Source of the DNA: an uncultured Candidatus Saccharibacteria bacterium
GTDB lineage: Bacteria; Patescibacteriota; Saccharimonadia; Saccharimonadales; JAUPVS01
Length of the DNA stretch: 64,000 nt
Reading direction: 5' to 3'
NCBI GenBank assembly: GCA_964462215.1
Contig: CAYWVZ010000001.1
Location: 26,128 to 90,127 of the forward strand
A program made the translations under genes and the position numbers. The notes beneath the pieces were generated by a model. The model had not been told where the DNA came from and did not search any database. It saw only the letters and a program-made list of their open reading frames with translations. Shown here one piece after another: positions 6,845 to 26,861 of the stretch. Positions within the stretch are counted from its first letter, which is position 1; each line of letters starts with the position of its first letter.

Positions 6845-6864
6845 CCCAGTACTTAACTAAAGGG

Positions 6865-9686: not shown

Positions 9687-9795
9687 TGGGACTTGTCTAG
9701 GATTCAAACAATTAGTTAACGTAACTTCCGTTGCGTAGTTATGCCGTAAAATGGGCAGCTACGTAAAAAAGAATAGGCATAACTGCTTGTTTGGG

Positions 9796-9842
9796 TCCTA
9801 GACAGTCCAGCGTGGCTGTCCTTTTTATTTGGTCTAGCTTTC
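9796..9842 (-). repeat. decayed att-like repeat copy 3 (overlaps a plus-strand terminator-like hairpin at 9801-9830)
   Basis: TCCTAGACAGTCC..CTGTCCTTTTTATTTGGTCTAGCT compared with GGTCTAGGAAC..GGTCTACCTTTTTGACTGCTTGGTCTGGCT in the good copies; same orientation. Confidence 0.5.
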
Positions 9843-9887
9843 ATCGCTGGCATGTGTCATTACTTGTCGCTTGCAAAGGAGAAAGCT

Positions 9888-10589
9888 ATGCAACAACCAA
9901 ATAAGAAGAAGTTATCAAAGAAGCCTTGGCATAAAAAATCATGGGGCGTTGTCCTTATTATTCTGTCAGTCATTACACTGACGTTCCCAATAGTGCTGTT
10001 TGTACTAATGTGGCAATCAAAGAAGTTCCCGGAGTGGGCAAAAATCGCCATCACAGCATTTGTCGTTATTGCAGCTATCGGTGCTGTCGGCTCGGAAGAA
10101 TCCGGCAATCAGACCAGCCAGAATAACAGCCCTGCTCAAGCCACCGAGCAAAAGCAAGCCGAAGAAGAACAAAAGAAAAAAGAAGCTGAAGCCTCCTACC
10201 AAAAAGTACTGGATACTTACGCCCCCGTATACTGCGCCAATCACCAAGACATAACTGTAAACGAGCCAACCCTACACGCAGATGGCTGGCCTATGGCAGA
10301 TAACAGAAAAGGTATTACCGCTGATGAGTGCAAGATACTTATAGGGCTGCTGTACTTACAGCGAGATGGCTATGCTAACCAAGAAGCATGGATTAAGTCA
10401 GTAGCAGAACGTAAGGTCGCTATCGGTATGACAAAAGTAGAGGTTGTGTACGCATGGGGTAGCCCGAGCGATATAAACCGCACTATAACCGGTGGTAACA
10501 CTCACGAGCAGTGGGTATTCGGCAACCCGATATACGGCGCAAACTACGTCTACTTCGACAATGACCTAGTAACAAGTATACAAAACTAA
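9888..10589 (+). CDS. membrane-anchored protein with a Lys/Glu-rich linker and a C-terminal SmpA/OmlA (BamE)-like domain
   Basis: ATG 9888 follows AAAGGAG. TM WGVVLIILSVITLTFPIVLFVLMW. C-terminus MTKVEVVYAWGSPSDINR...EQWVFGN...VYFDNDLV resembles BamE-type domains. Confidence 0.5.
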   Translation: MQQPNKKKLSKKPWHKKSWGVVLIILSVITLTFPIVLFVLMWQSKKFPEWAKIAITAFVVIAAIGAVGSEESGNQTSQNNSPAQATEQKQAEEEQKKKEAEASYQKVLDTYAPVYCANHQDITVNEPTLHADGWPMADNRKGITADECKILIGLLYLQRDGYANQEAWIKSVAERKVAIGMTKVEVVYAWGSPSDINRTITGGNTHEQWVFGNPIYGANYVYFDNDLVTSIQN

Positions 10590-12067
10590 CGAATACTTGT
10601 TAGACGGTTCAATATCTCTACCATTGCCAAGGTATCAAGTTTGCAGTATTTGAGTAAGTCGTTGTAGGTTTTCTCGGCTTCGTCAGGATTCAGAGCGCCC
10701 GTAACTGCATCAAACCACCTTACAGCGGCAACATCACCCTTTTGTATATCCAAGTCTTTATACGAATGCTCGGGTACCAGTACGGGTAATACGGCCTTGA
10801 TGGAGCAACTGCCCTTGAAATCTGGGTGTACATAGAGCTGTTTCGCAAAAATGTCTTTCAGATCAAATACCCTGTCATTAACACCGTGCAGGAAATTAGC
10901 ATACTCAGGGTAGAGCGTTGCCATTTCAGCGTTTCTGCCAACCTCGAACGATTTATGCCAAACTAAGACACTACCTGTATTGCCAATGTGATCTCTCATG
11001 GTACTGACCAGTTCTTCTATAGGATTAGTGCTAGCATCAGTGCTTAAGTATTCGTAATGTTCAGGCTCTGCGTTTGCTTCCTTTAGAACGTGCAACGAAT
11101 ACTGGAATGGTACTTGCTGGTATGGATGGCAGCGATTGAACATTGGCAGAGCGGTAGAAATGCTTTCGTAATCCAAAAAGTACAGCGGATAACTCAGTTC
11201 ATCAAGCATGAGGGCTATGCCAGCAGTGTCTATAATCGGTTCGCCAGATTTTGCTACCTGTACTTGCTTGGCTTGTGGTGGGGTTAGCTTAAAATCGTCA
11301 GGCACGTCAGTAAGACTAAAGATCTCATCATCTACTAGGCTAGCTAGTTTCTTGCCTTGCATGCGAGCAATGTCGAAAACGGAATACTCAGGAACATCGG
11401 GGTTAAAATACCGGAAAGTCGGGCAGTGTTTGCCACGCGAAAGTAAACGGCAACTACAACCCTTTGGCTCGGTCTTGTCCTTCAAACGATGTAGGGCATC
11501 GCTAACTTGCTGGCGAATTATTTCGATCAGCTCTGCTACTTGCTCGTCAACACAAGTTTTTGTGAGCAAACTACCAACATCAACGGTTTCGCTGTTACGA
11601 ACGTACTCTTTATTCATATGCACTACGTAGGTACTAACGATATTGTAGCCAGCAGTCTCAAAAGCTACCCGCTGAAATGCAATGTCGCTATAGTGCTCCT
11701 TTTTGATAGAATTCGTGGACTTTATTTCGTATAGAACCCAGCCGTCTTGTGCCTCGTCATACTCCAATACGTCAGCCATAGCCAATAAACCGTTGTCGGT
11801 CACAACGGTTGCTTGAAAGATAGTTCTAGCGCCATTCGCAATTAGCTTTTCAGTTTCGGGCTTTGCTTGATGACCTTTGGCTTGTACTAGGGCCACATTA
11901 CTGAATAGTGTGCGGGCATAGCGTTCAATTTCGTTACCTTGTTCAAGCCGCTGCTTGGCAACCTCTTCCTGATCATCGGATGGCACTAACTCACGTTTGT
12001 GTTTCCATAGCCAAAAATAGCTAGGGCAGATTTGGTATTTCAGGAAATCGGATTTAGATAAATGCAT
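10586..12067 (-). CDS. DUF2779-family protein: N-terminal Cas4/RecB-like PD-(D/E)XK nuclease plus C-terminal RNase-H-fold (DEDD-like) domain
   Basis: 493 aa. N-terminus LSKSDFLKYQICPSYFWLW. DVLEY...LYEIKS (D..ExK). Cys cluster C14 + CSCRLLSRGKHC. Later YFLDYES (DxE). The start abuts the upstream stop (TAAATG). Confidence 0.6.
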   Translation of the reverse strand: MHLSKSDFLKYQICPSYFWLWKHKRELVPSDDQEEVAKQRLEQGNEIERYARTLFSNVALVQAKGHQAKPETEKLIANGARTIFQATVVTDNGLLAMADVLEYDEAQDGWVLYEIKSTNSIKKEHYSDIAFQRVAFETAGYNIVSTYVVHMNKEYVRNSETVDVGSLLTKTCVDEQVAELIEIIRQQVSDALHRLKDKTEPKGCSCRLLSRGKHCPTFRYFNPDVPEYSVFDIARMQGKKLASLVDDEIFSLTDVPDDFKLTPPQAKQVQVAKSGEPIIDTAGIALMLDELSYPLYFLDYESISTALPMFNRCHPYQQVPFQYSLHVLKEANAEPEHYEYLSTDASTNPIEELVSTMRDHIGNTGSVLVWHKSFEVGRNAEMATLYPEYANFLHGVNDRVFDLKDIFAKQLYVHPDFKGSCSIKAVLPVLVPEHSYKDLDIQKGDVAAVRWFDAVTGALNPDEAEKTYNDLLKYCKLDTLAMVEILNRLTSIR

Positions 12068-12919
12068 TTACTTTGTATTCTTGTCTTTTAGGATGGTAAT
12101 TAAAGCAATACTCAGATGCAATACGGTGTGTGCATCTTCATAATCTGGATCGTTGTCAGTGCCAGAGTTATGTACGCTTCTTTTATTAACAAAAGAAGTC
12201 AATGAGGTTATTAATGATGGCCAATCAAGAATATCTTTTTTCGGTAAGTCCAGTTTATCAATATTATCTGAGATTTGCTTTGCATATTTACCTAAGTTGG
12301 TCGTTTTGTCATCTGGGTAGAGTCTGTCCCTGATTGCTCCCGCTAGCTGATCTAGTGATTTCTGCACTACGCTAGGGAGATTTTGACGCGATACATCGTA
12401 TAGGTCATTCCACGCTTGCTGTATGCGTTTATTATCCTCAAGCTGTGAAAGCTGTAAGTCAGCTTCTTCTGGAACTCTGAATTGCAAACTTATGGACACA
12501 CTGTGCCAATTTGGATCTGGAAGCCCCTGATTATTTTGCCGTACCGGCTTAGACTCAGAATGAACTGTATATTCTGAATTTGCCCCACTTAATATGTCCT
12601 CAAGCTCCCTGGCCGATGCATCATCTGGGTATGTCTGTAGAAGGTAGTTGATGTAATCTGCGATAAGCTCATTATTGCCTGATATTGATGCAGTGTGCGC
12701 TTCTAAATTATCTCCAAAGCTGCGTCTAAAAGCAGCGCTAATTTTTGCATTAAAACTATCGCTGATAGTTGTGTACATAGTGTTATACACTGATGGTTGA
12801 GGCGTATGGCCCTGTACATGGGCGCTAATCCATCTGAATACAGAGTCTTGCAAGAAAGGCGGAAAGCCTTTGGTTATCTCATTGGCATTATTATCTGGGT
12901 ATAAACGGTTAAAACTCAT
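12068..12919 (-). CDS. hypothetical protein; its C-terminal helix pair resembles an abortive-infection Abi_C-type domain
   Basis: 283 aa. The C-terminus VNKRSVHNSGTDNDPDYEDAHTVLHLSIALITIL is reminiscent of the RN..aHG...a..l.la motif of Abi_C. Weak by-eye similarity only. Confidence 0.35.
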   Translation of the reverse strand: MSFNRLYPDNNANEITKGFPPFLQDSVFRWISAHVQGHTPQPSVYNTMYTTISDSFNAKISAAFRRSFGDNLEAHTASISGNNELIADYINYLLQTYPDDASARELEDILSGANSEYTVHSESKPVRQNNQGLPDPNWHSVSISLQFRVPEEADLQLSQLEDNKRIQQAWNDLYDVSRQNLPSVVQKSLDQLAGAIRDRLYPDDKTTNLGKYAKQISDNIDKLDLPKKDILDWPSLITSLTSFVNKRSVHNSGTDNDPDYEDAHTVLHLSIALITILKDKNTK

Positions 12920-13016
12920 GCGAATATTTGTTGGAGCAAGTTTTTTGGATTTTTTACTACTCCAGCTTCCTTTTAACTGGTTCTATTTTATCACCTTAGG
13001 TAATAAAGAGTCGGAT

Positions 13017-13646
13017 TTAGAGAGATACATATTTCCTCTTGCTCCCATTTTTCAATCTTTCATTTACTTTCTCAAGTACTGACTCTTTTGCTCTTAGATT
13101 GTTCGCTGCTGCAAACTGTAAGAACCACAAAGTCCACTTAATGGCAGTATCGTAATCATTTCCGTCCAGAAGTGCCGTTGTCTTTCCTGAAAAGTGGATT
13201 GTTTTTGAACATTCATTATATAACTTCTTCAATACAGTAGGCTTGCTGGGATTCGTAGGGATTCTTGCCACCATTTGTGTGTATGTTTGACGGACATTAA
13301 CAGGATACTTTTTGTCGTCAGACTTTGGAAAATGTTTACCGTCTTTGTATGCCTTTATGAAATCCCTTAGTTCTGGACCCTCCAGCTTACGAACCTCGTT
13401 GATAATTGACATGCTTTCTGCCAAGAGTCTGAGTAGTGCAATAATTGCCAGCGTATGGCTTTTGTCTCCATTCTCTATCAACGCTTGTATTGAACGTCCA
13501 GTAGATACCGTATATTCGTGGTAATCACTCAAAAGCGTGAAGTAATATCTTTGTTTGCTTTTTTGAGGCACGATACTTACAAAAGCTGTAAAACTTTCCT
13601 CAACATCTGTTATCGCTTGACCTATCTGTTGCGACTCCTTTGTCAT
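13017..13646 (-). CDS. hypothetical helical protein, translationally coupled to the type IIG enzyme gene
   Basis: 209 aa. ATGA overlap with the upstream gene (13643-13646). No recognisable motif. Confidence 0.5.
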   Translation of the reverse strand: MTKESQQIGQAITDVEESFTAFVSIVPQKSKQRYYFTLLSDYHEYTVSTGRSIQALIENGDKSHTLAIIALLRLLAESMSIINEVRKLEGPELRDFIKAYKDGKHFPKSDDKKYPVNVRQTYTQMVARIPTNPSKPTVLKKLYNECSKTIHFSGKTTALLDGNDYDTAIKWTLWFLQFAAANNLRAKESVLEKVNERLKNGSKRKYVSL

Positions 13647-16600
13647 AATTTCTCAACAATGGTGATTTCTTCGGGGGTTAGGTTGTAGAGTTTGTAGACA
13701 AGCTGGTCGATTTCTTGGTCGGTTTTTTGGATTTGGGTATCGAGTTCGGCACATTCTTTTTTGTACTTTTCGAAGAGTTGGAGGAGTTCGTCTTTTTGCT
13801 GGAGAGATAGCTTCACTTTGAGGACTTTTACGAAGTCGGCGAAATCAAGCGTCCACCATTTGTTGAGTTTGGCTGCCCATTTTTCAATACCATACTCAGA
13901 TGATATTAACTTTCTAAAACTGTTCGATTTGTTTTGCAGGGTGGCGATTGCGTCAAGCATTGCTATAGAAAGTTCTTTGATATCATCATTTGGCACAACG
14001 ATAGGAAAATTAGCTAATTCACCAGCTTTCATTTGCGGGAATAATCCGCGCTGCATCTTACCTAACTTATTTACAAACCAAAACGATATCAACTTAGAGT
14101 TTAAGATACCGCATAAGGCTGGCAATAGCGAGACCTCATCATCATTTCGTCCGTAAACTACTATATAATTTTGGTCATTATAATAGTTCTCAGGAACGAC
14201 CATTGCCTGTATGGAGTGTGGCAGTTGTGATGGAATCACTCTAACAAGCAGGTGCATCTTATCGAACAGCTCCAGCCGTCTTGGTTCTCCCAGGTTATTC
14301 CCATATTTGATATACTCGCCAGACCAATCTGCATAGTATCGCTTTACATCACTTCCGCCAAAATAAGGCTTCCAATCAGACCCACTCGGTACATGAGAAT
14401 GGTAGACTCGTTTTTGACCCATTTCTTTATCTTGTTCAGGCGTTCCGTTACCAAGCTTGTAGGCAACCAGTCCATTTGAAATGGCGACTATGTCCTTTAG
14501 ATTTTGCCGCCCAGATTCAATCTTTTTCACAAGGTTCGCTTTTTCAGGACTTTGATACATTTCAAAGTTAATAATGTTGTCGCCATCAACAAAAATGTTC
14601 TTATCAATTCTTAGGATTTCAGTAAGTTCGCCGTCTGTCATATTATAAGCAGTAAGATTCTTGCTGGTCTGGTCTTTTTTGAATGTCGAAATCATAGTAT
14701 CAACATTTGCATCTGAAAAAACTTTTCCATAGATATTAACAATGTTAATTTCTGACGTATTTTCCAAAAAGTATTTACGGAAATCAGCTAACGAACGGAT
14801 AGTTAATACGTTATTTGGAGATATAAAAGATAGATAGCCGCCCGTCTTTAGTATCTCAAAGGCTTTTTCAAAGAAGTATATGTCAGTTCTAGGCTTGAGC
14901 TTATAGAGAATATATTTATCACGATAGTAAAGACCCTCTGGCTTGCTCATATTGTTACTGCGCAAGAAAACATACGGCGGGTTGCCAACTACCACATCAA
15001 ATCCGCCATTCTTAAATATCTCTGGGAATTGCTCTTGCCAGTTAAAGGCTTTGTCGCCAGCAACTTCCGAGTCGTCAATCAGGCTATTACCGCACTTTAT
15101 GTTGTTGTCCAACGCTGTGAGTTTCTTGCCCTTTTGGGCGGTCTTAAGCCACAACGATAGCTTGGTAATCTCTACTGATTCATCGTTAAGGTCAACACCG
15201 TAAATGTTGTTTTGCAGAATTGATTTAATGTAGTCATCGCTACTAAATAAGTTGTTGCCAAGTATACTCGCAACACGTTTGTTTTCTGCGAGTAAATAGT
15301 CAAAGACGTAAACTAAGAACGCACCCGAGCCACAAGCAGGGTCAACCACTTTGACGTTCTGTAGAAACTCCTGATATTTGTTGTAGGCTTGTTTTTCACG
15401 CTTCTCATAGTTTCTGTCATTGATGTCGCCCTTAAGCGCAAACTCGTCTTTGAACTTGTCTTCATGTTCTCGCAGATATGCACCAAGCGAATTATCTACG
15501 ATGTAACGGACGATGTAGTCAGGTGTATAGAAAATACCGTCTTTCTTGCGCCGAGATTGCTGGATTGCTTCTAGGTTTTGTTGCTCATTGACCTTGCTTT
15601 TAATTTCTTCCAGATCGCTGATAGATTGCTCAAAGATATGACCAAGAATCGTAACACTCAAGTCTTCATCGAAATTGTAATTACTGAGCGTTAGAACTGA
15701 ACGTAATGACTCATCGCTAATCTTCAGACTGTTGAGGTCTGGGTCGTGTTTGAACAGACCACCGTTATAACCGTCAGGAATCTCCAACTTGGGGCTACCA
15801 ACGTCAATAGCTTCAAAGAAACCTTTGAGCGTACTCCACAAGCTACCGCCAAACACAGAACTATCAGCAGCCTTTACGACACGTTGTAGGGTGTTATCTG
15901 GCAATAAGCCCTTGTCTTCGGCGAACGCCGCAAACACGATACGGTCTATAATCTTCTGGGCTTTTTCGATGCCAGTATCTATGTCTGTTCTGATCTGCTC
16001 ATTCTGTCGGTAAATGTCACGGAGTAATTCAAGACGAGCCTGGCGGTAGACTTTGTAAAACTTCTTACCAATTTCTTCTTGTTCAAAGCGGATGTCACTC
16101 AGTAAGTCCTCGGTTTTACTCGAACCTTTCGGTGTTGTGAGGTTGTCGCTGTGAATGAGTGTGTAGAACGTCTTGAACTTTAGGTAGTCGTCTTCAGGAT
16201 CAACAAGATCGTCTAACGTCCAGAGTTCATAGTCTAGTTGGTTGTCGTGATATAAGCGGAATTCCCAGAAGTTGCTGACAATAACAAACGGACAGTTGCG
16301 ATACTGCGTTTTATACTTAAAGCCTTGCTGAACTGGACTCATGTTACCTTCACGGCGCTGCGGACGGTCTAGCTCAATGGCAGCACCTTTTAGCTCAACT
16401 ACTGCGGCTATGTTCTTAATCTCACTCGAGACATCCGTGTGACTAAGCACGGCATCAGGTAGCTGACCTTTGTCTGTGGTGGCTTTTGGTTCAAAACTAT
16501 AGGGAACGGCTGGCTTCTCTTTGTAGCCAAGTATCTTAATGAAAAAATCTTGATTATAGGCTTGCTCACGAGATGTTTCTTTGTCTCGCTTGAGGCTACC

Positions 16601-16726
16601 GTTATGGTAGTCATGGTGCCATGTTTTGACGATAGCGATTTTATCTTCCAGATTCGAAGTCTCTAGTTTAGACGCTATGTCACGAAGTTTATTTTTTCCG
16701 AACAGGCTTGCCATATTAGACAACAT
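13643..16726 (-). CDS. type IIG restriction-modification enzyme (N-terminal PD-ExK endonuclease + gamma-class N6-adenine methyltransferase + target-recognition region; MmeI/Eco57I-like)
   Basis: 1027 aa. QLPDAVL...AVVELKG (PD...ExK). VVDPACGSGAFLV (motif I). VVGNPPYVF (motif IV). Long C-terminal specificity region. Confidence 0.8.
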   Translation of the reverse strand: MLSNMASLFGKNKLRDIASKLETSNLEDKIAIVKTWHHDYHNGSLKRDKETSREQAYNQDFFIKILGYKEKPAVPYSFEPKATTDKGQLPDAVLSHTDVSSEIKNIAAVVELKGAAIELDRPQRREGNMSPVQQGFKYKTQYRNCPFVIVSNFWEFRLYHDNQLDYELWTLDDLVDPEDDYLKFKTFYTLIHSDNLTTPKGSSKTEDLLSDIRFEQEEIGKKFYKVYRQARLELLRDIYRQNEQIRTDIDTGIEKAQKIIDRIVFAAFAEDKGLLPDNTLQRVVKAADSSVFGGSLWSTLKGFFEAIDVGSPKLEIPDGYNGGLFKHDPDLNSLKISDESLRSVLTLSNYNFDEDLSVTILGHIFEQSISDLEEIKSKVNEQQNLEAIQQSRRKKDGIFYTPDYIVRYIVDNSLGAYLREHEDKFKDEFALKGDINDRNYEKREKQAYNKYQEFLQNVKVVDPACGSGAFLVYVFDYLLAENKRVASILGNNLFSSDDYIKSILQNNIYGVDLNDESVEITKLSLWLKTAQKGKKLTALDNNIKCGNSLIDDSEVAGDKAFNWQEQFPEIFKNGGFDVVVGNPPYVFLRSNNMSKPEGLYYRDKYILYKLKPRTDIYFFEKAFEILKTGGYLSFISPNNVLTIRSLADFRKYFLENTSEINIVNIYGKVFSDANVDTMISTFKKDQTSKNLTAYNMTDGELTEILRIDKNIFVDGDNIINFEMYQSPEKANLVKKIESGRQNLKDIVAISNGLVAYKLGNGTPEQDKEMGQKRVYHSHVPSGSDWKPYFGGSDVKRYYADWSGEYIKYGNNLGEPRRLELFDKMHLLVRVIPSQLPHSIQAMVVPENYYNDQNYIVVYGRNDDEVSLLPALCGILNSKLISFWFVNKLGKMQRGLFPQMKAGELANFPIVVPNDDIKELSIAMLDAIATLQNKSNSFRKLISSEYGIEKWAAKLNKWWTLDFADFVKVLKVKLSLQQKDELLQLFEKYKKECAELDTQIQKTDQEIDQLVYKLYNLTPEEITIVEKL

Positions 16727-16802
16727 TATACCTTAAAAACAGATATAAATCTGGAAGATTCGCCTAGACTTTATATTCCTTTGCGGTACCTTGTACCTTG
16801 CT

Positions 16803-18077
16803 ATGGAAACAGTCCCAGAACTCAAATACTGCCTGTATGCACGAAAATCGAGCGAGTCCGATGAACGGCAAGCTATGAGTATTGACTCGCAGTTGGCGGA
16901 AATGCGTGCCCTTGCGCAAAACCAAGGATTGGATGTAGTGTGTGAACTGCAAGAAAGCCACTCGGCAAAAGACTCGGGGAAAAGACCTGTCTACAATCAA
17001 CTACTGCAAGGCGTGAGGAATGATGAATATAACGCCATTCTTACATGGGCACCCGACCGATTAAGTCGTAATGCCGGTGACCTGGGTGCAGTTGTTGACC
17101 TAATGGATCAAGGTAAGCTGCTTCACATAAAGACGTATTCCCAAACGTTTACGAATAATCCGAATGAAAAATTTTTGTTGATGATTCTCTGTTCTCAGGC
17201 CAAACTAGAAAACGATAATAAAAGTATCAATGTGAAGCGTGGTATCAAGGCAAAGTGCGAGATGGGATGGAGACCGGGCGTTGCACCACTAGGCTATATA
17301 AACCGTACATTTGGCGGAGTTAGTGATATTATTCCTGATCCGGAACGAGCTGAGGTTATAACTGAAATGTTCCATAAAGCATCTCAAGGTTGGAGTGGGC
17401 GTAGGTTAAAAGATTGGCTCGATGAAAAAGGTATTACTACTCGCAGCGGAAAACCAGTTCCGCTCAGTAGTTTGTTGGCAATGTTAATAAACCCCTTTTA
17501 CTACGGAGAATTTCAATATCCTGAGGGTGCAGGAGCGAAATGGTACAAGGGGGCACACAAGCCGCTCATATCAAAAGAACTGTTCGATGAATTACAACAG
17601 ACACGTGGAACCAATAAAGGAATATGGGGCTCAAAACAGTTTGCGTTTCGTGGGCTTATAAAATGTGGCCAGTGTGGTGCTGAGTTCACAGCTCAGGAAA
17701 AGTTCAAGAAGTTGAAGAACGGTGAATTTAACCGGCATGTTTACTACAACTGCACACGAAGAGTTGATCGAGACTGCACAGAAAAGTACATCAATGAAAA
17801 AGACCTGTGTGTGCTACTCCAGGAGTTCATTGAAAAAAATCACGACAAAATACACTTTACCGACAAACTGCGAGCTAAAATAGAAAGGCATTACCAAGTC
17901 ACCAAAACTCTACTTGGGCACTATGGCCTTGAGCAGTCGTTGGATGTACCATTTGTGGAGTATTCTAGATATATTCTAGTGCGAGGTACAGAGGCTGAAC
18001 GTGTAGCGTATGTCAACGGATTTACGACAAAACTGCTTATCAATGACGGCAATCTACTTATCCAGCCAGCGCGATAA
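16803..18077 (+). CDS. large serine recombinase (resolvase domain + recombinase domain + zinc ribbon)
   Basis: CLYARKSSESDERQAMSIDSQ (catalytic Ser region). ILTWAPDRLSRN. CGQCGAEF...YYNCTRR..DC zinc ribbon. Confidence 0.85.
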   Translation: METVPELKYCLYARKSSESDERQAMSIDSQLAEMRALAQNQGLDVVCELQESHSAKDSGKRPVYNQLLQGVRNDEYNAILTWAPDRLSRNAGDLGAVVDLMDQGKLLHIKTYSQTFTNNPNEKFLLMILCSQAKLENDNKSINVKRGIKAKCEMGWRPGVAPLGYINRTFGGVSDIIPDPERAEVITEMFHKASQGWSGRRLKDWLDEKGITTRSGKPVPLSSLLAMLINPFYYGEFQYPEGAGAKWYKGAHKPLISKELFDELQQTRGTNKGIWGSKQFAFRGLIKCGQCGAEFTAQEKFKKLKNGEFNRHVYYNCTRRVDRDCTEKYINEKDLCVLLQEFIEKNHDKIHFTDKLRAKIERHYQVTKTLLGHYGLEQSLDVPFVEYSRYILVRGTEAERVAYVNGFTTKLLINDGNLLIQPAR

Positions 18078-18102
18078 AACCTGATACCCTATAATAGATA
18101 GT

Positions 18103-18918
18103 ATGAATGATGCAACTATTTTCTACTCTTGGCAGAGCAACCATAAAGAAACGAAAAACTTCATAAACAAGGCTTTGAGCGATGCGATTAAGACCTTGTC
18201 GGGTAATAACACATTAGAAAAAGCACCCAGACTCGATAAGGACACGCAAGGAACTGTTGGATCTCCCAACATCGTCAGCACCATTAAAAACAAGATAGAT
18301 AATTGTGGCATATTTATTGCCGACGTTTCAATTGTTGACGAATCAAAAAGTGGCAGAAAACTTGTAAATCAGAATGTGATGTTTGAGCTTGGTTACGCTA
18401 TCGCCAAACACTCAGAGTTAAATGTCGCTATGCTGTTTAATGCTGACCTGGGTGATCCAAAAGACCTGCCTTTTGATATCTCACACCACCGAGTGCTGCA
18501 GTTTTCCGTTAAGGATGATGACAAAAATGGCACAAAACTGAAAGCGAAGTTAGTCGGAGCACTCACAGCACACCTAAACAGTCTGACAGAACAGGAAATA
18601 TCACAAGTTGAGCAAAGCTTGGACGAGATCCAGCTACTAATCATGAGGGTGTTCGCCTCCATGACTGACGACAAGAGAATTTTGGTTTCTGCTCATTTGG
18701 GTGGACATAGCTTACACCCAATGAACCCCGTAGACGACAGTCTGCTGAGTCAGCTTAATCGGATAGACATCCAAGAGCTTATTGCAAACATGGATGACCT
18801 TGTAAATACTGGTATTCTAACCGTAGATTATGGTAGTAAAGGGACACCTAACTACAAGCCTGCGAAGCAAGGTTTTGAGATTATTAAGATACTGAATAGT
18901 AAACAAAACGAACCTTAG
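18103..18918 (+). CDS. TIR-like / nucleoside 2-deoxyribosyltransferase-like domain protein with a helical C-terminal domain
   Basis: 271 aa. IFYSWQSNHKETKNFINKAL ... CGIFIADVSIV ... NQNVMFELGYAIA ... LPFDISHHRV is a pattern recalled from bacterial TIR-like domains. By-eye assignment. Confidence 0.5.
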   Translation: MNDATIFYSWQSNHKETKNFINKALSDAIKTLSGNNTLEKAPRLDKDTQGTVGSPNIVSTIKNKIDNCGIFIADVSIVDESKSGRKLVNQNVMFELGYAIAKHSELNVAMLFNADLGDPKDLPFDISHHRVLQFSVKDDDKNGTKLKAKLVGALTAHLNSLTEQEISQVEQSLDEIQLLIMRVFASMTDDKRILVSAHLGGHSLHPMNPVDDSLLSQLNRIDIQELIANMDDLVNTGILTVDYGSKGTPNYKPAKQGFEIIKILNSKQNEP

Positions 18919-18988
18919 GGTAATCCATACATCAAAACTAAGTGAAGATCATAAAAACCAGAAAAACCCGAAGATCAAGGGTGTCCTA

Positions 18989-21900
18989 TTAGGCTGTGAT
19001 ATTTTTGTCGATAAGCTGTGTTAGCCTACTAAACTCACGGTCGGTGTCGTCTAGCCAGTTAGTTGACCATATGCGGTACAGCTCCCAACCCTTCTCTTCG
19101 AGCACCTTTTGACGGTTATAGTCGCTCTGTTCTTTATCAAAGCCACTGTGGTACATTGCGCCGTCCATTTCTATACCCAATACAAATTTCTTGTGCTTGG
19201 TAGAGAATACTCCAAGATCAATCCTAAAACCAACATTACGTTCATTAGCATCTATGCCTTCACCAGTAGGAATTAGTAAATGCCATCCAACCTCACTGTA
19301 TATCTTAATGGAGTGACCGAGCTGATCCGCATAATGATCTGTCAACTTCTCATAGAGTTGTTGCGTTAGTGGCGAATCGAACCAATTGACATTATTGCCC
19401 AGCTTTCGATCAAGATATGTAGTGTCCGTGACTTCTCCAGCATTTTGCAATAGTGCCTTCATCAATTCGGCACTCTTACGGGCATTCGGTCCAGTTAAAC
19501 CGCTGCTTATTTTATCTTCACAAGTCTGTATCCAGCGGGATTTTTGATCCGCTAGTAGTAATTTCAAGCCTTCTCGTTGACGAGTAATCGAGACGTTTAG
19601 ACGCTTGTACGCACCGGCTGCTTCTTTGAAGAACCACATAGCACCAGGTGACGAGTAATGTTGCATATAGATTATCGTGTAGGTACCTTCAATGCCCTGA
19701 CAGTTTGTAACAGTAGAAAGTAGAATCTTATCAGTTCCATAGAGCCGTGAAATGTTCTGATACTTTTGCTCACCGATTTGAGTCAAGAAGTTCTTAAACT
19801 CGGTTAGTTTATGCCCAGTAGTGAAAAGGATACAAAAACTTGAATCGCTATCCTGAACCAGATATTCATCAACTGATTCGCAGATTTTGTAAAAGTTTTT
19901 ATCATAACCAAATTCATCTTGGTCATCACCTAAATCGTCAATGATGTCTATAGGCGCACCGTTAGCAAGTTCCGCTTCAAAGATTGGCTCAATTCCATCT
20001 TCACTATAAATAGCCTCGCGGGACGGCTCAAACAACTTGTTGTATTTGGAACGGTAGTGAACTTTAAGGTGGTGCTGTTTCTGCGGTTGCTTTCGTGCTA
20101 AGTCTAGTATGCTCTCTCCTAGATCATCGAAATCATCTTCCGATTGTTCGGTCAAACCAATACTAGCATTCAGGCTAGGGGGCATTTGGTGTGGGTCGCC
20201 AATAATTACTGCCTTCTTGGCACGATATATTGATGGTAGCGCTTGACCAGGCAATAGCTGCGATGCTTCATCAAAAATAACAAAATCAAAAATACCTTTG
20301 TCTGGTGCTATATACTTTGAGACTTCTTTTGGAGTGGCACAGATGACAGGAAAGGCACTCGCTATAGTTGCAGTGTTGTGCCTGAATTTATCCATAGTAG
20401 ACTTACCGCCCAACTGCATAGTTGACTGTTTCGACAATTCTCGCATTGCGTCCAACGAGCTACTATATATATGTTTAAGGTTATCTTTATAAGTTTGAGC
20501 TTTTTGGCTCTTTAAATACTTTTCATAACTATCGACAATATCCTTAGTAGTAACGTGTTTCTTGTCACTTAATCCAGCACGCCCAAAACTCTCACCCACC
20601 AAAACATTCACCAATCGTGACGCAAACACATCAAAGGTTATATCATTATTTAGTATTTCGTCTAGATACTGGCTATTTGCCCCACCAAGAGCTTGCCTAA
20701 TACTACTTATTGATTTATTGTGCTGTATAAAATCGACGATCTCGGAATCATTATTGTAAATTGACAGGATATTTATACTGCTAAGCCAATCCTGGAGTGT
20801 TTTTTCCTGTGGAAGTTCGAAAAAGAAATCGGAAAACAAGTCTAATTGATTTACTTCATTAATCGTCGTAACGAGCTTTTCTATATCTGAGTTTATCGAT
20901 GCATTATCGTCTGGCAGCGACAAGGTATCAGTAACTTTTCCAATAACTACTTCGTTCCTATCTAAATATTCATAAACCTCTCTGGCTCTTGCGGCATATG
21001 AGTCTGTTTCATTAATACCAATGAGCCACTTGCTGTTTTCTGAGAATGAATTCTGCGTTAGAACCTTTTGCTCATTCAATACTTCAGACTTCTTCTGCTG
21101 ATGATGCTTGATATCTATAGCCTGATTAGCGTCAGTTACGAAATCAGTCAGTTTCCCACCAAGAAATGCTTTTTTATTGTTTGAATCTTGTCGTAGTAAA
21201 TCTAGTGCTTTGACACTACGGCTAAATTCCGAGAACCATCCACTAACCTCTTTGAATTCACCAGCAATTGATGCTGAGCCGTATTTTTTATTTATTATGT
21301 AAAAAAGTTCATACACCGGTAATAACCTATCCTTTAAGACGGTTATGTCTTTAGATGGCTTAACACCCAGCTTTGATAGTTCAATAGTACTATTCTTGTT
21401 AGCCAATCCAATGAACTGCTTAATATTCGACCCATCAATATCTATAATTTCTTTAATCGCATTTAGAATTGGTGCGAAACTTTCCCTATAGGTATCCATC
21501 TGCTTTGCGTTTTCGAATGCAAGCAAATCTTTAAAATTTTTTGGTACACCACTTAACATCCGTTTGATAGAGTTTTGAGCATAGTACTTATCCAGTTCTC
21601 TATTTAGTACATCGATATCTTTTGCGGTTAGCATATAGACTGTATCTTGACCACCCTCTATAGTTTCGCTCAATACGGACTTGATTTGTTTTGCCATACC
21701 GATGAGAAGATTTGATAAGCTAGAGTACTTGACATCGGGTGCCGTTCCTAAGACCACTTTGACTAGTTCGGGTATGCGTTTATGATCCTGTAATAACTCA
21801 CCGAAATCTTGTTCAGCGATGGTTATTGCTTCGGCGCTAAGTTTGATTTGCTCATTTAATTCGTCAGGTATATTGATTTGATATTTAGCACTCTCCGCTA

Positions 21901-22843
21901 CAGAGGTTATGTGCTTATCAATACGCTGAAGCTTCTCGTTATTTTCATGCGTGCCATCTATGAAGTCTTTTAGACTTTTCGTTAGCTCTCCGACTTCCTT
22001 ATGCTCTGTTGCAATCCTATAGGTATCTATGTATTGGATGGATTGATTGTACTTCTGTAACATGATCAGATAGTCAACGACATCTATACTCGTCTTGGTT
22101 GCAAACCGATTGAGATAGTCTCCTTGAAATGTATCGTTTATATTCTTGATCTGCTCTCGAATATCCGGCAATATTATGTTGCTATTCTTGGTAGACAAAA
22201 GTATCAGTTCCCGTCGAGGCTTATTAAATTCCGTAAAATAATCTTTATGCTCGTAGGAATCAAGCTCGGTAAAAACTGCTCGAACGTTAACTTTTTCAAA
22301 TTCTCGAACAGATTCTGGTGCCATGGACCGTCTAACGTATTTGATATAGTAGCCGACCAACTCATCGAAGCCTATATCATCTGACGTGATGTGATAGTTG
22401 CTATTGTGATCAAGAGTCGTGTAGCGCAGAGGATATTGTATAGCTGAAGGTCTGTCTGCCAAAAAGATATCGGGAAGTTGCTTGCTAGTGATTTTAGAGT
22501 ATTGCTCGCGTAAATATTTCAGATACCTATGCGTGGGGTTGTGAAGCATCAAACAAAAGTCCAAAAGTGATAGATACTTATTGTCATTAGGATAGCCTAT
22601 CGTGGACTCGGTGTGCTTTATCATACGCTCTATCACCCTAAGTGCTTCTGTGTTCTGGCTCACGAACAGAACCTTCTTGTTTTCACCCGCTAATCTTTCA
22701 AGCAAGCTAACTACTAGCTGAGACTTTCCGGTTCCCGGTGGTCCATAAACAATTTGTATAGTAGCAGGGTCATTATCAATAGAGTTAAACGTATTCTTTT
22801 GTGACGGATCTAGCGAGCTGAATGTTATATTGTTCTCGCTCAC
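18989..22843 (-). CDS. SF1 (Dna2/Upf1-like) helicase with a large insertion and a C-terminal DUF559/Vsr-like PD-(D/E)XK endonuclease domain
   Basis: 1284 aa, GTG start. LDPSQKN...VYGPPGTGKSQLVVSLL...VLFVSQNTEALRVI (Walker A). FVIFDEASQL (Walker B). IIGDPHQMPP. NVSITRQREG. C-terminus GIEMDGAMYH...VLEEKGWELYRIWSTNW. Confidence 0.8.
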   Translation of the reverse strand: MSENNITFSSLDPSQKNTFNSIDNDPATIQIVYGPPGTGKSQLVVSLLERLAGENKKVLFVSQNTEALRVIERMIKHTESTIGYPNDNKYLSLLDFCLMLHNPTHRYLKYLREQYSKITSKQLPDIFLADRPSAIQYPLRYTTLDHNSNYHITSDDIGFDELVGYYIKYVRRSMAPESVREFEKVNVRAVFTELDSYEHKDYFTEFNKPRRELILLSTKNSNIILPDIREQIKNINDTFQGDYLNRFATKTSIDVVDYLIMLQKYNQSIQYIDTYRIATEHKEVGELTKSLKDFIDGTHENNEKLQRIDKHITSVAESAKYQINIPDELNEQIKLSAEAITIAEQDFGELLQDHKRIPELVKVVLGTAPDVKYSSLSNLLIGMAKQIKSVLSETIEGGQDTVYMLTAKDIDVLNRELDKYYAQNSIKRMLSGVPKNFKDLLAFENAKQMDTYRESFAPILNAIKEIIDIDGSNIKQFIGLANKNSTIELSKLGVKPSKDITVLKDRLLPVYELFYIINKKYGSASIAGEFKEVSGWFSEFSRSVKALDLLRQDSNNKKAFLGGKLTDFVTDANQAIDIKHHQQKKSEVLNEQKVLTQNSFSENSKWLIGINETDSYAARAREVYEYLDRNEVVIGKVTDTLSLPDDNASINSDIEKLVTTINEVNQLDLFSDFFFELPQEKTLQDWLSSINILSIYNNDSEIVDFIQHNKSISSIRQALGGANSQYLDEILNNDITFDVFASRLVNVLVGESFGRAGLSDKKHVTTKDIVDSYEKYLKSQKAQTYKDNLKHIYSSSLDAMRELSKQSTMQLGGKSTMDKFRHNTATIASAFPVICATPKEVSKYIAPDKGIFDFVIFDEASQLLPGQALPSIYRAKKAVIIGDPHQMPPSLNASIGLTEQSEDDFDDLGESILDLARKQPQKQHHLKVHYRSKYNKLFEPSREAIYSEDGIEPIFEAELANGAPIDIIDDLGDDQDEFGYDKNFYKICESVDEYLVQDSDSSFCILFTTGHKLTEFKNFLTQIGEQKYQNISRLYGTDKILLSTVTNCQGIEGTYTIIYMQHYSSPGAMWFFKEAAGAYKRLNVSITRQREGLKLLLADQKSRWIQTCEDKISSGLTGPNARKSAELMKALLQNAGEVTDTTYLDRKLGNNVNWFDSPLTQQLYEKLTDHYADQLGHSIKIYSEVGWHLLIPTGEGIDANERNVGFRIDLGVFSTKHKKFVLGIEMDGAMYHSGFDKEQSDYNRQKVLEEKGWELYRIWSTNWLDDTDREFSRLTQLIDKNITA

Positions 22844-23697
22844 GATTCATAGTCCTTACTGTCAAGCATCTTTCCCCACGCAGGATCAACGTACTCGGCC
22901 TCAAAGCCGGTAACAATCTGAAACGCCATATACTGAGGATTAATCTTAACACTTTTGTATTTAGCAGATAGATTAACGCCATTCATATACTCCGATATAG
23001 TATTTACTTGATTTGCAAAATCAGCATCCAGCGTAACCTCAAAATTATTCGAACGTTTCCGGCCTATTTCATTACCGAAGAAGTTTTTGTCTAGCCAAAA
23101 ATTGATAAAACCTGTTTGCTCTACGGTAGCGTTAAATTTATTTAAATCTAATTCTGGACAAGAAAATAAAAAAAGCGGATAGTTTGCTACTTTATCCTGA
23201 TAGTCAACTACCTCAACCAGACCAATCGTTAAGTAATGCATACGGTCACCCGTCGTACGATATTGAGTATCAGTTTCCTTCTTTAGCTTGTCTAGGTTAC
23301 GACTGATCAATCGGCGCTTAGCTGCTTCAGATAACTTATCCCATATATCACTATCTTTCTCGGTGTTGAATCTTAGTCTATTTATTAAGTTAGCCAGGGA
23401 AAGTTCACCACGCGCTTCGACCTGACGAACTACTTCGTCGTAGCCATTTTTGTCAAAAACCAGGCCCGGCTGGTTACGGCCACCAAGCCTTTGCCATACC
23501 CCTATTGGGGCTTTTGCTTTTTCATCTACTTCAAATAGGGTTTGGTTATCCGGAGTATTCTTGTCAAACACCAAAGATAATCCACTTGCTAAGTTGCCGC
23601 TAGCTATACTTCCTCTGTTGCCAACCAAAACACGCCTAAACTCACCGAATTGCTTCGTATTACTGTACTCAAGAATACTGTCATAAGCGGTAGTCAT
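22840..23697 (-). CDS. hypothetical protein resembling a detached DUF4011 N-terminal module of DUF4011-helicases
   Basis: 285 aa. GTGA overlap with the helicase gene. RMHYLTIGLVEVVDYQDKVANYPLFLFSCPEL resembles the LyLalGfLeW....aPLlL.Pv core of DUF4011. By-eye only. Confidence 0.45.
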   Translation of the reverse strand: MTTAYDSILEYSNTKQFGEFRRVLVGNRGSIASGNLASGLSLVFDKNTPDNQTLFEVDEKAKAPIGVWQRLGGRNQPGLVFDKNGYDEVVRQVEARGELSLANLINRLRFNTEKDSDIWDKLSEAAKRRLISRNLDKLKKETDTQYRTTGDRMHYLTIGLVEVVDYQDKVANYPLFLFSCPELDLNKFNATVEQTGFINFWLDKNFFGNEIGRKRSNNFEVTLDADFANQVNTISEYMNGVNLSAKYKSVKINPQYMAFQIVTGFEAEYVDPAWGKMLDSKDYES

Positions 23698-24039
23698 CTA
23701 GCGCAATTATATCATAATAACAGGGCTAGATATCGGTCTAGGAACCCTGTCTGGTTTTCGGCTGCACAGTCCTCGTAATCAGGATTGGTCAGTTCGGGAA
23801 CCGTTTAACAGAGATGAGAATGAAAGAACCGCTATTTCTAGCGGTTCCAACATCTGTACTTTGTAATCAGCACGTTTCTTTCTTGGCTGACCAAGGAGTT
23901 AAATGAGGGACCGGTCTAGGAACTCGGTCTACCTTTTTGACTGCTTGGTCTGGCTCCGGGGACTGGATTCGAACCTGCAGTAGTTACCACTTTATTTCAG
24001 GCTCGCTTTACTTTAGCTTACATCTGTAAATTATCAAAT
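23698..24039 (-). repeat. inter-cassette junction unit A (secondary decayed att copy, spacer with hairpin, att hairpin+core, tRNA-like remnant)
   Basis: Alignable along its length with units B (25081-25424) and C (26598-26936). Core at 23942-23959; secondary copy at 23733-23772. Confidence 0.8.
23951..24038 (-). pseudogene. tRNA-like remnant (CCA, 3' acceptor half, decayed T-arm; no 5' acceptor strand)
   Basis: The reverse complement ends ...GGTTCGAATCCAGTCCCCGGAGCCA. The 5' region cannot pair with the acceptor 3' strand. About 85-nt block conserved with 25342-25424. Confidence 0.65.
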
Positions 24040-25080
24040 TTAATAAGTAAGGGTAATATTATGTGTAGTAAGATCAATCTTCGCCAAGCCGCCATAGGGC
24101 ATAACGATTTGCGGAGCTGTATGCCCGAAATCTAAGTTCTGAACAATAGGAATATTGGCATTGTATCCCCGGACTGTTTTTACGATTGTCTCGCGCTGTT
24201 GTTTCTTGTAGGCGTCTTTCTGCTCCGGCGAGTTTGGCTTATCGAATTCCCATGACTTTGGTCGTCCAACTAGTACTCCTTGAAAGATATCAAACCACCC
24301 ACGTTCGCCGAAGCCTGTCAGTAGGTACTCAACAATCCATGCCTCGGGGATATCCTCCGCAGTTTCGATAAATAAAATCGTGCCCTCTAGGTCTTCTTGC
24401 TTGGGTAAATACTTTTCGGCAGAACACTGTACTATGAGTGATTCAACGCATCCGCCCCACAAAACACCTTCCCCGCTTTTATCACCATCCCACTTTAGTC
24501 CATCATTTGGCTCAAATTGGCGCTGTTTATCCAGATTTTCTTTTACTGACCAGTTGAGCCCGATGTCATTGAATTCACTAGAAGACTCAACCGCTAGCTC
24601 TCCTGTCTCAAAAAGCGCTTGTCTTAGGTATTTAACATTAAGGTCCGGAATTTTTTGCTGAAAAGCCAATTCAGTCATAATCCCGCCGCCATAGTAAGAG
24701 GGAATACCTAACCCCCATAGAAAATTATGCAAATGAGTGTTGTCGCTATATCCGAAAAATGGCTTAGGATTGGCAGTGAATACTTCAGGGTTGAGTAGCT
24801 TAATAAGCTTTATTTGGTCTTCGCCGCCAATAGAAGCAAACACCGCCTTGTTAGCCTGATCACTAAACGCGGCCATAATATCCTGGGCACGATCTTCCAG
24901 TGATGAGCCCATTTGCCGAGTAGTTGGGTACTCTTTTGGAATCAGTTGAAAGACGTTCTGTAATCTTTCCAGTCCTAAATCCTGTACCCATGGAAATAAA
25001 CCTGGGAGGCCAGCCGAAGGAGAGATGACGCCAACCTGATCGCCAGGCTTAAGCTTTGGAAGTTTCAGGAAGGTTTTCAT
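24040..25080 (-). CDS. S66-family LD-carboxypeptidase (MccF/LdcA-like serine peptidase)
   Basis: 346 aa. LKPGDQVGVISPSAG ... FASIGGEDQIKLI ... FFGYSDNTHLH ... DFGHTAP is the family motif order. Confidence 0.75.
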   Translation of the reverse strand: MKTFLKLPKLKPGDQVGVISPSAGLPGLFPWVQDLGLERLQNVFQLIPKEYPTTRQMGSSLEDRAQDIMAAFSDQANKAVFASIGGEDQIKLIKLLNPEVFTANPKPFFGYSDNTHLHNFLWGLGIPSYYGGGIMTELAFQQKIPDLNVKYLRQALFETGELAVESSSEFNDIGLNWSVKENLDKQRQFEPNDGLKWDGDKSGEGVLWGGCVESLIVQCSAEKYLPKQEDLEGTILFIETAEDIPEAWIVEYLLTGFGERGWFDIFQGVLVGRPKSWEFDKPNSPEQKDAYKKQQRETIVKTVRGYNANIPIVQNLDFGHTAPQIVMPYGGLAKIDLTTHNITLTY

Positions 25081-25424
25081 AGATATATAGTATCAGTTTT
25101 CGGTCATGGAACCCGGTCTGCCTTTCGTCTGCTCGGCCGTCGTATAGGCGACAGGTCAGTTTCGGAACCGAATAACAGAGCTAACAAGTAAAAATCAGTC
25201 GCTTACGACAGTTCCAACAACCACACTACATAATTCTTATTTTGGGAAACCGGGCTCGAACCGAATAACAGATAAGAGGTGGTTTGAGAAAATAGAAAAG
25301 ACCGGTCTAGGAGACCGGTCTACCTCTGTTAGTGCTTGGTCTGGCTCCGGGAACTGGATTCGAACCAGGAGTAGCTACCACCCAATTTCAGGCTCGCTTT
25401 ACTTTAGCTTACATCTGTTATTTA
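25081..25424 (-). repeat. inter-cassette junction unit B
   Basis: Roughly four-fifths identical by eye to unit C over about 260 nt. Contains an extra tRNA 3'-end fragment TGGGAAACCGGGCTCGAACCG (25243-25263) and the duplicated motif CGAACCGAATAACAGA. Confidence 0.85.
25342..25424 (-). pseudogene. tRNA-like remnant (intact T-arm CTGG/ATTCGAA/CCAG, 3' acceptor half, CCA; no 5' acceptor strand)
   Basis: The reverse complement ends ...CCTGGTTCGAATCCAGTTCCCGGAGCCA. The upstream part (GCTAAAGTAAAGC..) does not fold as a cloverleaf. Confidence 0.65.
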
Positions 25425-26570: not shown

Positions 26571-26597
26571 CAGTATACTAACAGATAGATTAATCAC

Positions 26598-26861
26598 AAA
26601 GCATATCCAGTTTTAAGCATCGGTCATGGAACGCGGTCAACTTTTTTCCTGCTGGGTTGCCATAGGGCTGACTGGTCAGTTTTGGAACCACCTAACAGAG
26701 GCCGAAAGTAAGAATCAGCTAGTTACAACAGTTCCAACATCCACACTACATAATCCATATTTAGGGAAACAGGACTCGAAACGGATAACAGATAAGGGGT
26801 GATTTAAGTAAATAGAAAAGACCGGTCTAGGAAACCGGTCTACCTCTGTTAGTGCTTGGTT
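26598..26861 (-). repeat. junction unit C (native downstream flank of tRNA-Asn, template of units A/B)
   Basis: Same architecture as unit B: secondary decayed copy at 26621-26661, conserved GTTCCAACATCCACACTACATAAT block, hairpin at 26819-26841. Confidence 0.8.
26811..26841 (-). terminator. rho-independent terminator of tRNA-Asn
   Basis: On the minus strand the arms AGACCGGT and ACCGGTCT pair (8 bp, 7-nt loop), followed by CTTTTCTATTT. Confidence 0.65.

Follow-up and report, generated by a model that had tools for sequence, protein, structure and literature searches.

Vulcan (NIR/DUF4062) is a single protein in which an N-terminal TIR-like NADase is joined to a C-terminal sensor (bioRxiv 10.64898/2026.09.04.749371), and abortive-infection (Abi) proteins of the AbiJ type combine a small non-catalytic domain with interchangeable effectors: HEPN-Ymh, PLD/HKD, restriction endonuclease (REase), TIR and nucleoside 2-deoxyribosyltransferase (NDT)-like domains (Anantharaman et al. 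2013, PMC3710099). Small, Mu Gin-like serine recombinases are known to mark defence systems in Bacillota and other phyla (PLoS Biol 2026, PMC13552941). Here we describe a gene for a 271-residue TIR-like protein that lies just downstream of the gene for a large serine recombinase, in 64,000 nucleotides of DNA from an uncultured Candidatus Saccharibacteria bacterium (GenBank assembly GCA_964462215.1, contig CAYWVZ010000001.1, positions 26,128 to 90,127 of the forward strand; this whole stretch is called the window, and its own numbering is used throughout). The protein joins an N-terminal TIR-like domain, through a long helix, to a C-terminal winged helix-turn-helix (wHTH). From its sequence, its structural model and the analogy with described effectors, we consider that it is probably a stand-alone protein of the abortive-infection type, in which the wHTH would sense or restrain, the chains would oligomerise, and Glu95 would hydrolyse NAD+. 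TIR-like effectors are already known; what would be new here is a TIR-like effector with a new, lineage-restricted putative sensor on a serine-integrase island.

A preliminary description of this DNA had reported a large serine recombinase followed by a TIR-like protein, and both open reading frames (ORFs) are found where it placed them, on the forward strand. The recombinase is read as 424 residues from its ATG, with an alternative TTG at 16791, and the ATG of the TIR-like ORF (18103-18918, 271 residues) is the 26th base past the recombinase stop, so that the spacer measures 25 nucleotides. The parts of the pair are these:

16803-18077, forward strand: large serine recombinase, 424 residues, probable integrase of the whole island (Pfam, SprA match, sole recombinase of the island)
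18078-18102, forward strand: spacer, with TATAAT at 18090-18095, 7 nucleotides 5' of the ATG of the TIR gene
18103-18531, forward strand: TIR-like domain, residues 1-143 (PF10137, model, Foldseek), with the candidate catalytic Glu95 at 18385-18387
18532-18618, forward strand: long connecting alpha-helix, residues 144-172 (secondary structure of the model)
18625-18906, forward strand: winged helix-turn-helix, residues 175-268 (RosR profile match, model, Foldseek)

The motifs that had been quoted for the 271-residue protein are all present (IFYSWQSN at residues 6-13, NVMFELGYA at 91-99 and LPFD at 122-125), and the recombinase does diverge, as was said, from a type IIG restriction-modification (RM) gene on the reverse strand (13643-16726), the two start codons standing 76 nucleotides apart. 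Because the ORF has 649 homologues at E<=1e-3 and a ratio of nonsynonymous to synonymous substitution rates (dN/dS) of 0.03-0.06 against relatives, we regard it as a real gene; this ratio, which indicates strong purifying selection, is restricted to the closest pairs, dS being saturated in most pairs. The gene may also have its own start of transcription. The arrangement TATAAT-N7-ATG is kept in five loci, among them L090, L092, L002 and L004 (L-numbers denote the loci of relatives used for comparison), and one of the five is without any recombinase remnant. This conservation suggests that the TIR gene has a TATAAT promoter of its own and a leaderless mRNA; a sigma-70 promoter scan did not call the TATAAT, the -35 hexamer being absent.

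The sole Pfam match of the 271-residue protein is PF10137, the TIR domain of Cap12 and of Pycsar effectors (27.9 bits against a gathering score of 24.7, E 2.5e-6, residues 49-122), a family that 39 of the 52 broader family members also match. In the AlphaFold model, made with 46 homologues (predicted local distance difference test score, pLDDT, 85.9), a flavodoxin-like domain is followed by a long helix and a compact alpha/beta domain. When the TIR-like domain was compared by Foldseek with the PDB, the TIR-STING structures 9lmr, 9lmq and 7un8 came out on top (E 5e-6 to 2e-4), the next-best structures being an NDT at 5e-4 and then DNPH1 and MilB at about 1e-2. The TIR-like identity first proposed is thus upheld both by a Pfam score above gathering and by the best structural match. 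The family-invariant residues are FYSWQ(S), D74, N89, N91, E95, G97, P123, F124 and D125, and four of these (E95, G97, P123 and D125) do not vary among the family members compared (46 close, 48 broad). In profile-to-PDB matches E95, within NVMFELGY, aligns with a glutamate of PycTIR, NDT and Cap12, and the motifs NV..E.G and LP.D align with NVHLEFG and LPSD of PycTIR and with NVVFEFG and LPTD of Cap12; the glutamate of the NV..E.G motif in PycTIR and Cap12 is, we assume, the catalytic residue.

That E95 also aligns with the NDT glutamate, in FELGYA, allows another reading, in which the protein would be metabolic, a nucleoside or nucleotide 2-deoxyribosyltransferase or hydrolase working in nucleotide salvage. 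Saccharibacteria rely heavily on salvage, conservation of the protein is strong, one homologue was named nucleoside 2-deoxyribosyltransferase by the Joint Genome Institute (JGI), and Foldseek does find NDT, DNPH1 and MilB, with E from 5e-4 to 1e-2. However, the residues before E95 are VNQNV (PNPNV in the wider family), which is the PF10137 pattern and agrees with PycTIR and Cap12, as opposed to the PDCGT of the NDT chain 6qai; the general NDT motif is D-x-G-T. LP.D is likewise common to PycTIR and Cap12, TIR-STING is the better structural match, and in Pfam the protein passes the cutoff of PF10137 but has no match to the NDT family (PF05014) at E<=0.01. Because of the PF10137-pattern residues before the glutamate and the LP.D alignment, the N-terminal domain is, as far as its sequence tells, a divergent member of the Cap12/PycTIR TIR-like clade and not a deoxyribosyltransferase. 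A housekeeping deoxyribosyltransferase was rejected, since the NDT Pfam match is missing, VNQNVMF stands where 6qai has EPDCGTAF, and only the fold and the glutamate are common to both. A salvage role of any kind also has against it that the fused wHTH is common to HEPN and PLD toxins and that the gene is patchily distributed, on islands beside RM systems and toxins, and we think it quite improbable.

Other identities were considered for the same domain. On the 271-residue protein PADLOC gave short matches only, to PDC-S35 and to the TIR effectors of the cyclic-oligonucleotide-based antiphage signalling system (CBASS). Membership of PDC-S35 was rejected: residues 77-122 alone match positions 198-243 of the 278 in the profile (E 1.7e-6), and these positions belong to the C-terminal end of that profile, which implies another architecture; a literature search on PDC-S35 found nothing. 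A DUF4062/NIR identity, considered in view of recent NADase papers, was dropped as the protein has no such Pfam match, and it has none to ThsB_TIR or TIR_2 either. In the family at large, the N-terminal domain with its FYSWQSD signature always stands at the extreme N-terminus, and the C-terminal regions are variable and without Pfam match. The N-terminal domain occurs at 438 confirmed loci in species-representative genomes and on 33 IMG/VR contigs, and a metagenome scan for further close relatives added only about five. Cap12/TIR-STING and PycTIR, which have the same TIR-like fold and the same NV..E.G and LP.D motifs, remain the best structural and sequence matches, and by analogy with them NAD+ hydrolysis on activation would be expected here too. 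Unlike them, the 271-residue protein has no STING, SAVED or cyclic nucleotide monophosphate-binding sensor and no cyclase gene, its TIR-like domain is N-terminal and joined by a long helix to a wHTH, and the FYSWQSD signature is distinctive to its family.

The C-terminal part had been taken for a helical domain of about 130 residues. It consists instead of one long helix, residues 144-172, and an alpha/beta winged helix of about 95 residues, 175-268. Searched against the PDB, the C-terminal profile matches the wHTH of hsRosR (E 1.5e-5), a separate model of the domain reaches a pLDDT of 91.8, and the top Foldseek matches of that model are all wHTH proteins (TubR, RosR, QsrR, MarR and PadR, with TM scores of 0.5-0.6 and weak E values of about 0.02). 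The domain is rare: its profile alone finds 49 clusters among 1.84 billion representative proteins. The TIR-wHTH version, of 260-300 residues, is found only in Candidatus Saccharibacteria genomes, and its close relatives form about 22 clusters. Elsewhere the same domain is swapped onto other N-termini. In 7 of 10 proteins scanned it is the C-terminus behind a Hypoth_Ymh part with an FRNEKxH motif, Ymh being a HEPN family tied to RM and Abi contexts (PMC3710099). It is also fused to PLDc_2, to an unassigned domain of 300 residues, and to a hydrophobic, probably membrane-spanning segment; the N-terminal domain of the protein P0248 has no PDB or Pfam match. As in AbiJ-type proteins, one module is paired with interchangeable effectors; the difference is that the common module is in this case a C-terminal wHTH, extremely rare and unrelated to the N-terminal domains of AbiJ. 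A wHTH with swappable, effector-like N-termini points, by this analogy, to a putative sensor-plus-effector abortive-infection protein. We would extend this only tentatively, to a proposal that is well worth considering and still falls short of probable: that the wHTH is a very rare sensor module, present in named genomes only on Saccharibacteria TIR-like proteins, which with at least five effector heads (TIR-like, HEPN-Ymh, PLD, the 300-residue domain and the hydrophobic segment) would define an undescribed single-protein abortive-infection family, the TIR-headed version of it being cargo of a widespread serine-integrase island that accumulates modules at tRNA-Asn.

The nature of the other heads bears on the substrate. 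In place of NAD+ depletion, the wHTH might target the TIR-like domain to nucleic acid, where it would act on phage DNA or RNA as an N-glycosidase or in a nuclease-like manner. A wHTH fold is there, the other heads on the same wHTH are nucleic-acid enzymes (HEPN RNase, PLD nuclease), and the related folds DNPH1 and MilB hydrolyse the N-glycosidic bonds of nucleotides; yet the wHTH is acidic, and the members of the Cap12/PycTIR clade characterised so far are NADases. We consider a nucleic-acid target unlikely.

The protein also appears to stand alone. No ThsA, CD-NTase or Pycsar cyclase was found among the island proteins (Pfam, PADLOC, NCBIfam) or in the top window-wide matches listed, and no partner gene is conserved, no Pfam family occurring in more than 3 of the 150 ORFs that flank homologues in 40 loci. 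The earlier statement that a ThsA-, CBASS- or Pycsar-type partner is lacking agrees with both results. Membership of CBASS or Pycsar was rejected, there being no cyclase match and the C-terminal domain being a wHTH and not a cyclic-nucleotide sensor; so was membership of Thoeris, with no ThsB_TIR or TIR_2 match for the protein, no ThsA match in the window listings and no conserved partner. The layout resembles that of Vulcan, in that one polypeptide carries an N-terminal TIR-like effector with a putative catalytic glutamate and a non-enzymatic C-terminal module, with no partner gene. It differs from Vulcan in that the 271-residue protein is PF10137-like and lacks DUF4062, has a wHTH where Vulcan has HEAT repeats, and is a predicted system. 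Near close homologues lie a type III RM system, a CdiA toxin domain, an RHS-HNH toxin, a reverse transcriptase and a HEPN DUF4145 gene, and near wider homologues components of MADS, BREX and RM systems.

The recombinase matches Resolvase (6.8e-21), Recombinase (3.3e-15) and Zn_ribbon_recom (2.7e-09) in Pfam, all above cutoff. Its closest solved relative is SprA of SPbeta (1.5e-11), with which its YARKS aligns at YLRRS, presumably the site of the catalytic (nucleophile) serine in SprA. Its top NCBIfam match, CcrB, is far under the cutoff (121.8 bits against 900). The family counts more than 120 clusters at 72-87% identity, of which the few named ones are Saccharimonadales, and related recombinases lie repeatedly 1-7 kb from a tRNA-Asn and read towards it. 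Family scans of 6931-23907 found no tyrosine integrase, and the serine recombinase is the only recombinase there; a megablast of 16-24 kb against plasmids gave no match. It had been argued that serine recombinases do not generate long direct repeats and that this one therefore probably does not explain the tRNA-type repeats of this region, an argument weakened by the finding that this is the only recombinase of the island and that its relatives sit near tRNA-Asn and read towards it. The 424-residue protein is probably the integrase of the whole island, with a putative activity at the tRNA-Asn site. To judge from the relatives, it usually lies close to the end of the island that faces the tRNA, and a slot for cargo separates it from the attachment (att) site.

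Three sampled relatives, L207-L209, illustrate such an island. The likeness lies either in the ParB-methylase/HTH (helix-turn-helix) backbone, which two of them (L207 and L209) have upstream of the recombinase, or in the chromosomal side, marked by SmpB or by tRNA-Asn together with LexA and Wzy_C. In cargo they differ altogether: an MmeI-type RM system with a C5 methylase; a type I RM system with SocA and Fic; and ThsB_TIR with a caspase and an RHS toxin. None of the three carries the TIR-wHTH gene. This absence matters for the possibility that the 271-residue protein is an accessory of the recombinase, a recombination directionality factor or island regulator whose wHTH binds att or operator DNA. 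Its gene does follow the recombinase by 25 nucleotides on the same strand, the pair is kept in L090/L091, the wHTH fold is typical of DNA-binding regulators, and directionality factors of serine integrases are diverse and sometimes enzyme-like proteins. But more than 120 close recombinase clusters stand against about 22 close TIR-wHTH clusters, and where the recombinase is a remnant the TIR gene is intact and under purifying selection. The same wHTH is moreover joined to HEPN and PLD domains in places with no recombinase nearby, it is acidic, and invariant residues of a catalytic type would be purposeless in such a role, which we hold to be very improbable.

At 1545-2911 of L209 the ThsB_TIR gene adjoins a Peptidase_C14 (caspase-like) gene, a Thoeris-like pair from Saccharimonadales on an island of the same recombinase family. 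At 14667-16499 of L087 a more distant serine recombinase gene, of 599 residues, overlaps with its 3' end the 3' 42 nucleotides of tRNA-Asn on the opposite strand, a hint that tRNA-Asn is also the target of a second lineage of serine recombinases. In L049 another more distant serine recombinase adjoins a 473-residue TIR-like gene and tRNA-Arg.

The pair lies in a low-GC region beside a tRNA-Asn, and diverged copies of the tRNA's 3' end and terminator, five in all, divide that region up. Around the pair the region is composed as follows:

6863-6931, no strand assigned: left tRNA-Asn 3'-end-like repeat, island boundary (repeat family D2; 83% identical to 23907-23975)
7832-10589, forward strand: backbone, with ParB_N-N6/N4 methylase, 149-residue HTH protein and 245-residue protein (Pfam; same order in L090)
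10590-16753, reverse strand: accessory block 1, with DUF2779 Cas4-like nuclease, unknowns of 283 and 209 residues and type IIG RM (Pfam, PADLOC; absent from L090)
18986-23733, reverse strand: accessory block 2, with helicase-nuclease 18989-22843 and 285-residue ORF 22840-23697 (PADLOC, Pfam)
23734-23978, no strand assigned: island right end, including the tRNA-Asn 3'-end-like repeat 23907-23975 (repeat family D2/D4; homologous to L090 6089-6262)
26862-26936, reverse strand: intact tRNA-Asn(gtt), integration target (ARAGORN)

The related loci L090/L091, whose TIR gene is the closest relative of that in the window, have the order ParB-methylase, 149-residue gene, 211-residue gene, recombinase (78.6% identity), TIR gene (88%), DUF4145 and tRNA-Asn, and positions 6089-6262 of L090 adjoin the true tRNA-Asn of that locus. 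In L090, L002, L004, L087 and L208 either the TIR gene or the recombinase has the same tRNA-Asn beside it. Homology of the window to L090 resumes at 16820-18898 and at 23806-23978, and relative to L090 the window has two extra blocks, 10590-16753 and 18986-23733. A sequence of about 250 nucleotides, which aligns with the window from 23714 or 23728 to 23978, comes immediately after the TIR stop in L086 and L002. Upstream of the TIR gene, L092/L093, L002/L003 and L086 keep a C-terminal remnant of the recombinase, 35-64 residues long. With the pair recurring in L090/L091 and these 3' remnants upstream, the view that the TIR gene is recombinase-associated cargo is borne out. The remnants were located at 6162-6353 of L092, 7863-7967 of L002 and 6295-6471 of L086; they read KHYQVTKTLL..EYSRYIL.RGTEAER..GF.TKLLI and contain no stop codons, and the one in L086 is a called ORF of 72 residues, 1.5 kb from the TIR gene. 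Synonymous sites are saturated between the TIR genes of the remnant loci, and the remnants are either recent truncations or under selection.

The same comparison bears on what the recombinase marks. It had been suggested that it may mark a small element nested in the larger island, at about 16.7-23.7 kb, with the TIR-like gene and possibly the helicase pair as its cargo. The recombinase does lie in mid-island here and diverges from the RM gene, the TIR gene and then the helicase pair come after it, and the right limit of such an element would match the tRNA-like repeat at 23907. In L090, however, genes for a ParB-methylase, an HTH protein and a small protein stand directly upstream of the recombinase; since no RM block lies there between backbone and recombinase, the RM block of the window is an insertion whose junctions lie at 10590 and 16753. 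The helicase pair, which L086, L002 and L090 lack, is a discrete insertion in its own right. The 76-nucleotide spacer between RM gene and recombinase holds no repeat or att-like site, and a search around 16.7 and 23.7 kb for att-like inverted or direct repeats found none besides those of the tRNA type. The nested element is therefore unsupported, because recombinase and TIR gene are shared with related islands and go with the backbone in L090, L086 and L002, while the sequence comparison shows two separate insertions of cargo, the RM block and the helicase pair; we judge it distinctly improbable. By the same comparison the TIR-wHTH gene appears as one recurrent occupant of the slot between recombinase and att site.

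The junctions of both blocks are tight and can be read from the relatives. The RM block is enclosed by the stop codon of the 245-residue gene and a conserved CTAGACTT 47 nucleotides 5' of the recombinase ATG. For the helicase block, AAGGGTGTC lies on one side and a GGTCTAGGAACC motif on the other, and both are contiguous in L002. In the RM block, the ORFs for DUF2779 (with a Cas4-like N-terminus) and for the 283- and 209-residue proteins, the last two without family match, occupy 10586-13646 in the same orientation as the type IIG RM gene, and all four genes were inserted together as one block of 6.2 kb. The helicase-nuclease (1284 residues) has AAA_11, AAA_12 and a C-terminal MTES_1575 REase, matches PDC-S37 in PADLOC (2.8e-65), and matches ProA of NCBIfam below its cutoff (8.7e-62). 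Its start overlaps by 4 nucleotides the stop of the upstream 285-residue ORF, which has no family match; the two make a compact two-gene defence candidate.

The arrangement recalls staphylococcal cassette chromosome (SCC) elements with CcrAB, and SprA of SPbeta: a large serine recombinase with Resolvase, Recombinase and Zn-ribbon domains and, as in SCC, tandem modules bounded by target-site repeats at the 3' end of a conserved gene. It differs from SCC in the recombinase, which is a predicted one and scores so far below the Ccr cutoff, in the target, tRNA-Asn, and in the repeats, which are long (69-284 nucleotides) and diverged. With the small recombinases that mark defence systems it shares the linkage of a serine recombinase gene to varied antiphage genes; the difference is that the recombinase here is large, a putative island integrase, and found in Saccharibacteria.

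Some observations concern the flanks. A 19-nucleotide motif, CGGTCTAGGAACCCGGTCT, has six copies, at 6868, 23734, 23912, 25101, 25303 and 26823, two per module right end; the copy beside the tRNA forms the terminator hairpin of the tRNA, the copy at 23734 is the exact right junction of the helicase block, and the motif may be a recombination or insertion site. Between the island and the tRNA, 23975-26818 holds two single-gene modules, each between tRNA-Asn 3'-end-like repeats, one for an LD-carboxypeptidase (24040-25080) and one for an AIR-synthase-like protein (25425-26597), both on the reverse strand. They share a 284-nucleotide direct repeat (25083-25366 and 26603-26886, 80% identity), and the stretch looks like a cassette array at the tRNA, without an integrase of its own. 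A second low-GC patch, 57000-59200 (0.42-0.44), adjoins tRNA-Gln (59040-59114, reverse strand) and may be another small island.

The explanation that we propose joins these parts. Positions 6.9-24.0 kb of the window would be a single genomic island, inserted at the 3' end of the tRNA-Asn of a Saccharibacteria chromosome, and the 424-residue recombinase would mobilise the whole of it. The island would consist of a backbone (ParB-methylase, HTH protein, small protein, recombinase and tRNA right end) with room for cargo both to the left and to the right of the recombinase. As defence-type cargo, the 271-residue gene would lie between integrase and tRNA end and would probably be transcribed from a TATAAT promoter of its own. 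Its wHTH may be a sensor or regulatory module for a phage-derived cue, whether nucleic acid or protein, or may keep the enzyme inactive; the long helix would couple it to the TIR-like domain, and activation would probably come about by oligomerisation through this helix, as in other TIR effectors. Once activated, Glu95 would cleave an N-glycosidic bond, most likely that of NAD+, and the infected cell would be arrested. What the analysis establishes is the structure of the genes, the folds, the invariant residues, the gene order shared with relatives and the exchange of domains; from these we infer the NADase chemistry, the trigger, the anti-phage activity and the action of the recombinase at the tRNA. 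Our statements of likelihood are separate plausibility ratings and not a partition, and the nested-element reading, being about island structure, overlaps with the options for protein function.

Several points weigh against this explanation. The PF10137 score is marginal, at 27.9 bits against 24.7, and in the profile-to-PDB comparison solved TIR and NDT proteins are matched weakly (E 0.26-0.96). The wHTH is mildly acidic, with an isoelectric point of 5.1, so that DNA binding is uncertain, being neither proved nor excluded. Defence genes are scattered among the neighbours of homologues, in a raw listing with no background comparison, and some homologues, as in L089, lie amid housekeeping genes. 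The very strong conservation, together with a stable position near tRNA-Asn across diverged genomes, is less typical of defence genes with fast turnover. As to the integrase, no att core, crossover site or half-site symmetry could be assigned for the serine recombinase, and long repeats derived from a tRNA would be more usual with a tyrosine integrase.

Few phage defences are known from bacteria of the candidate phyla radiation (CPR), such as Saccharibacteria, whose genomes are tiny. If the proposal is true, a compact TIR-like protein whose lineage-restricted sensor can be swapped would give these bacteria one more defence family, open to testing. The recombinase, for its part, would mark a fixed tRNA-Asn hotspot at which RM systems, a Thoeris-like pair, toxins and the TIR-wHTH gene are exchanged, and may offer an example of a large serine recombinase that targets the 3' end of a tRNA. 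It could thus be used as bait in searches for new defence genes of Saccharibacteria, as small serine recombinases have been elsewhere.

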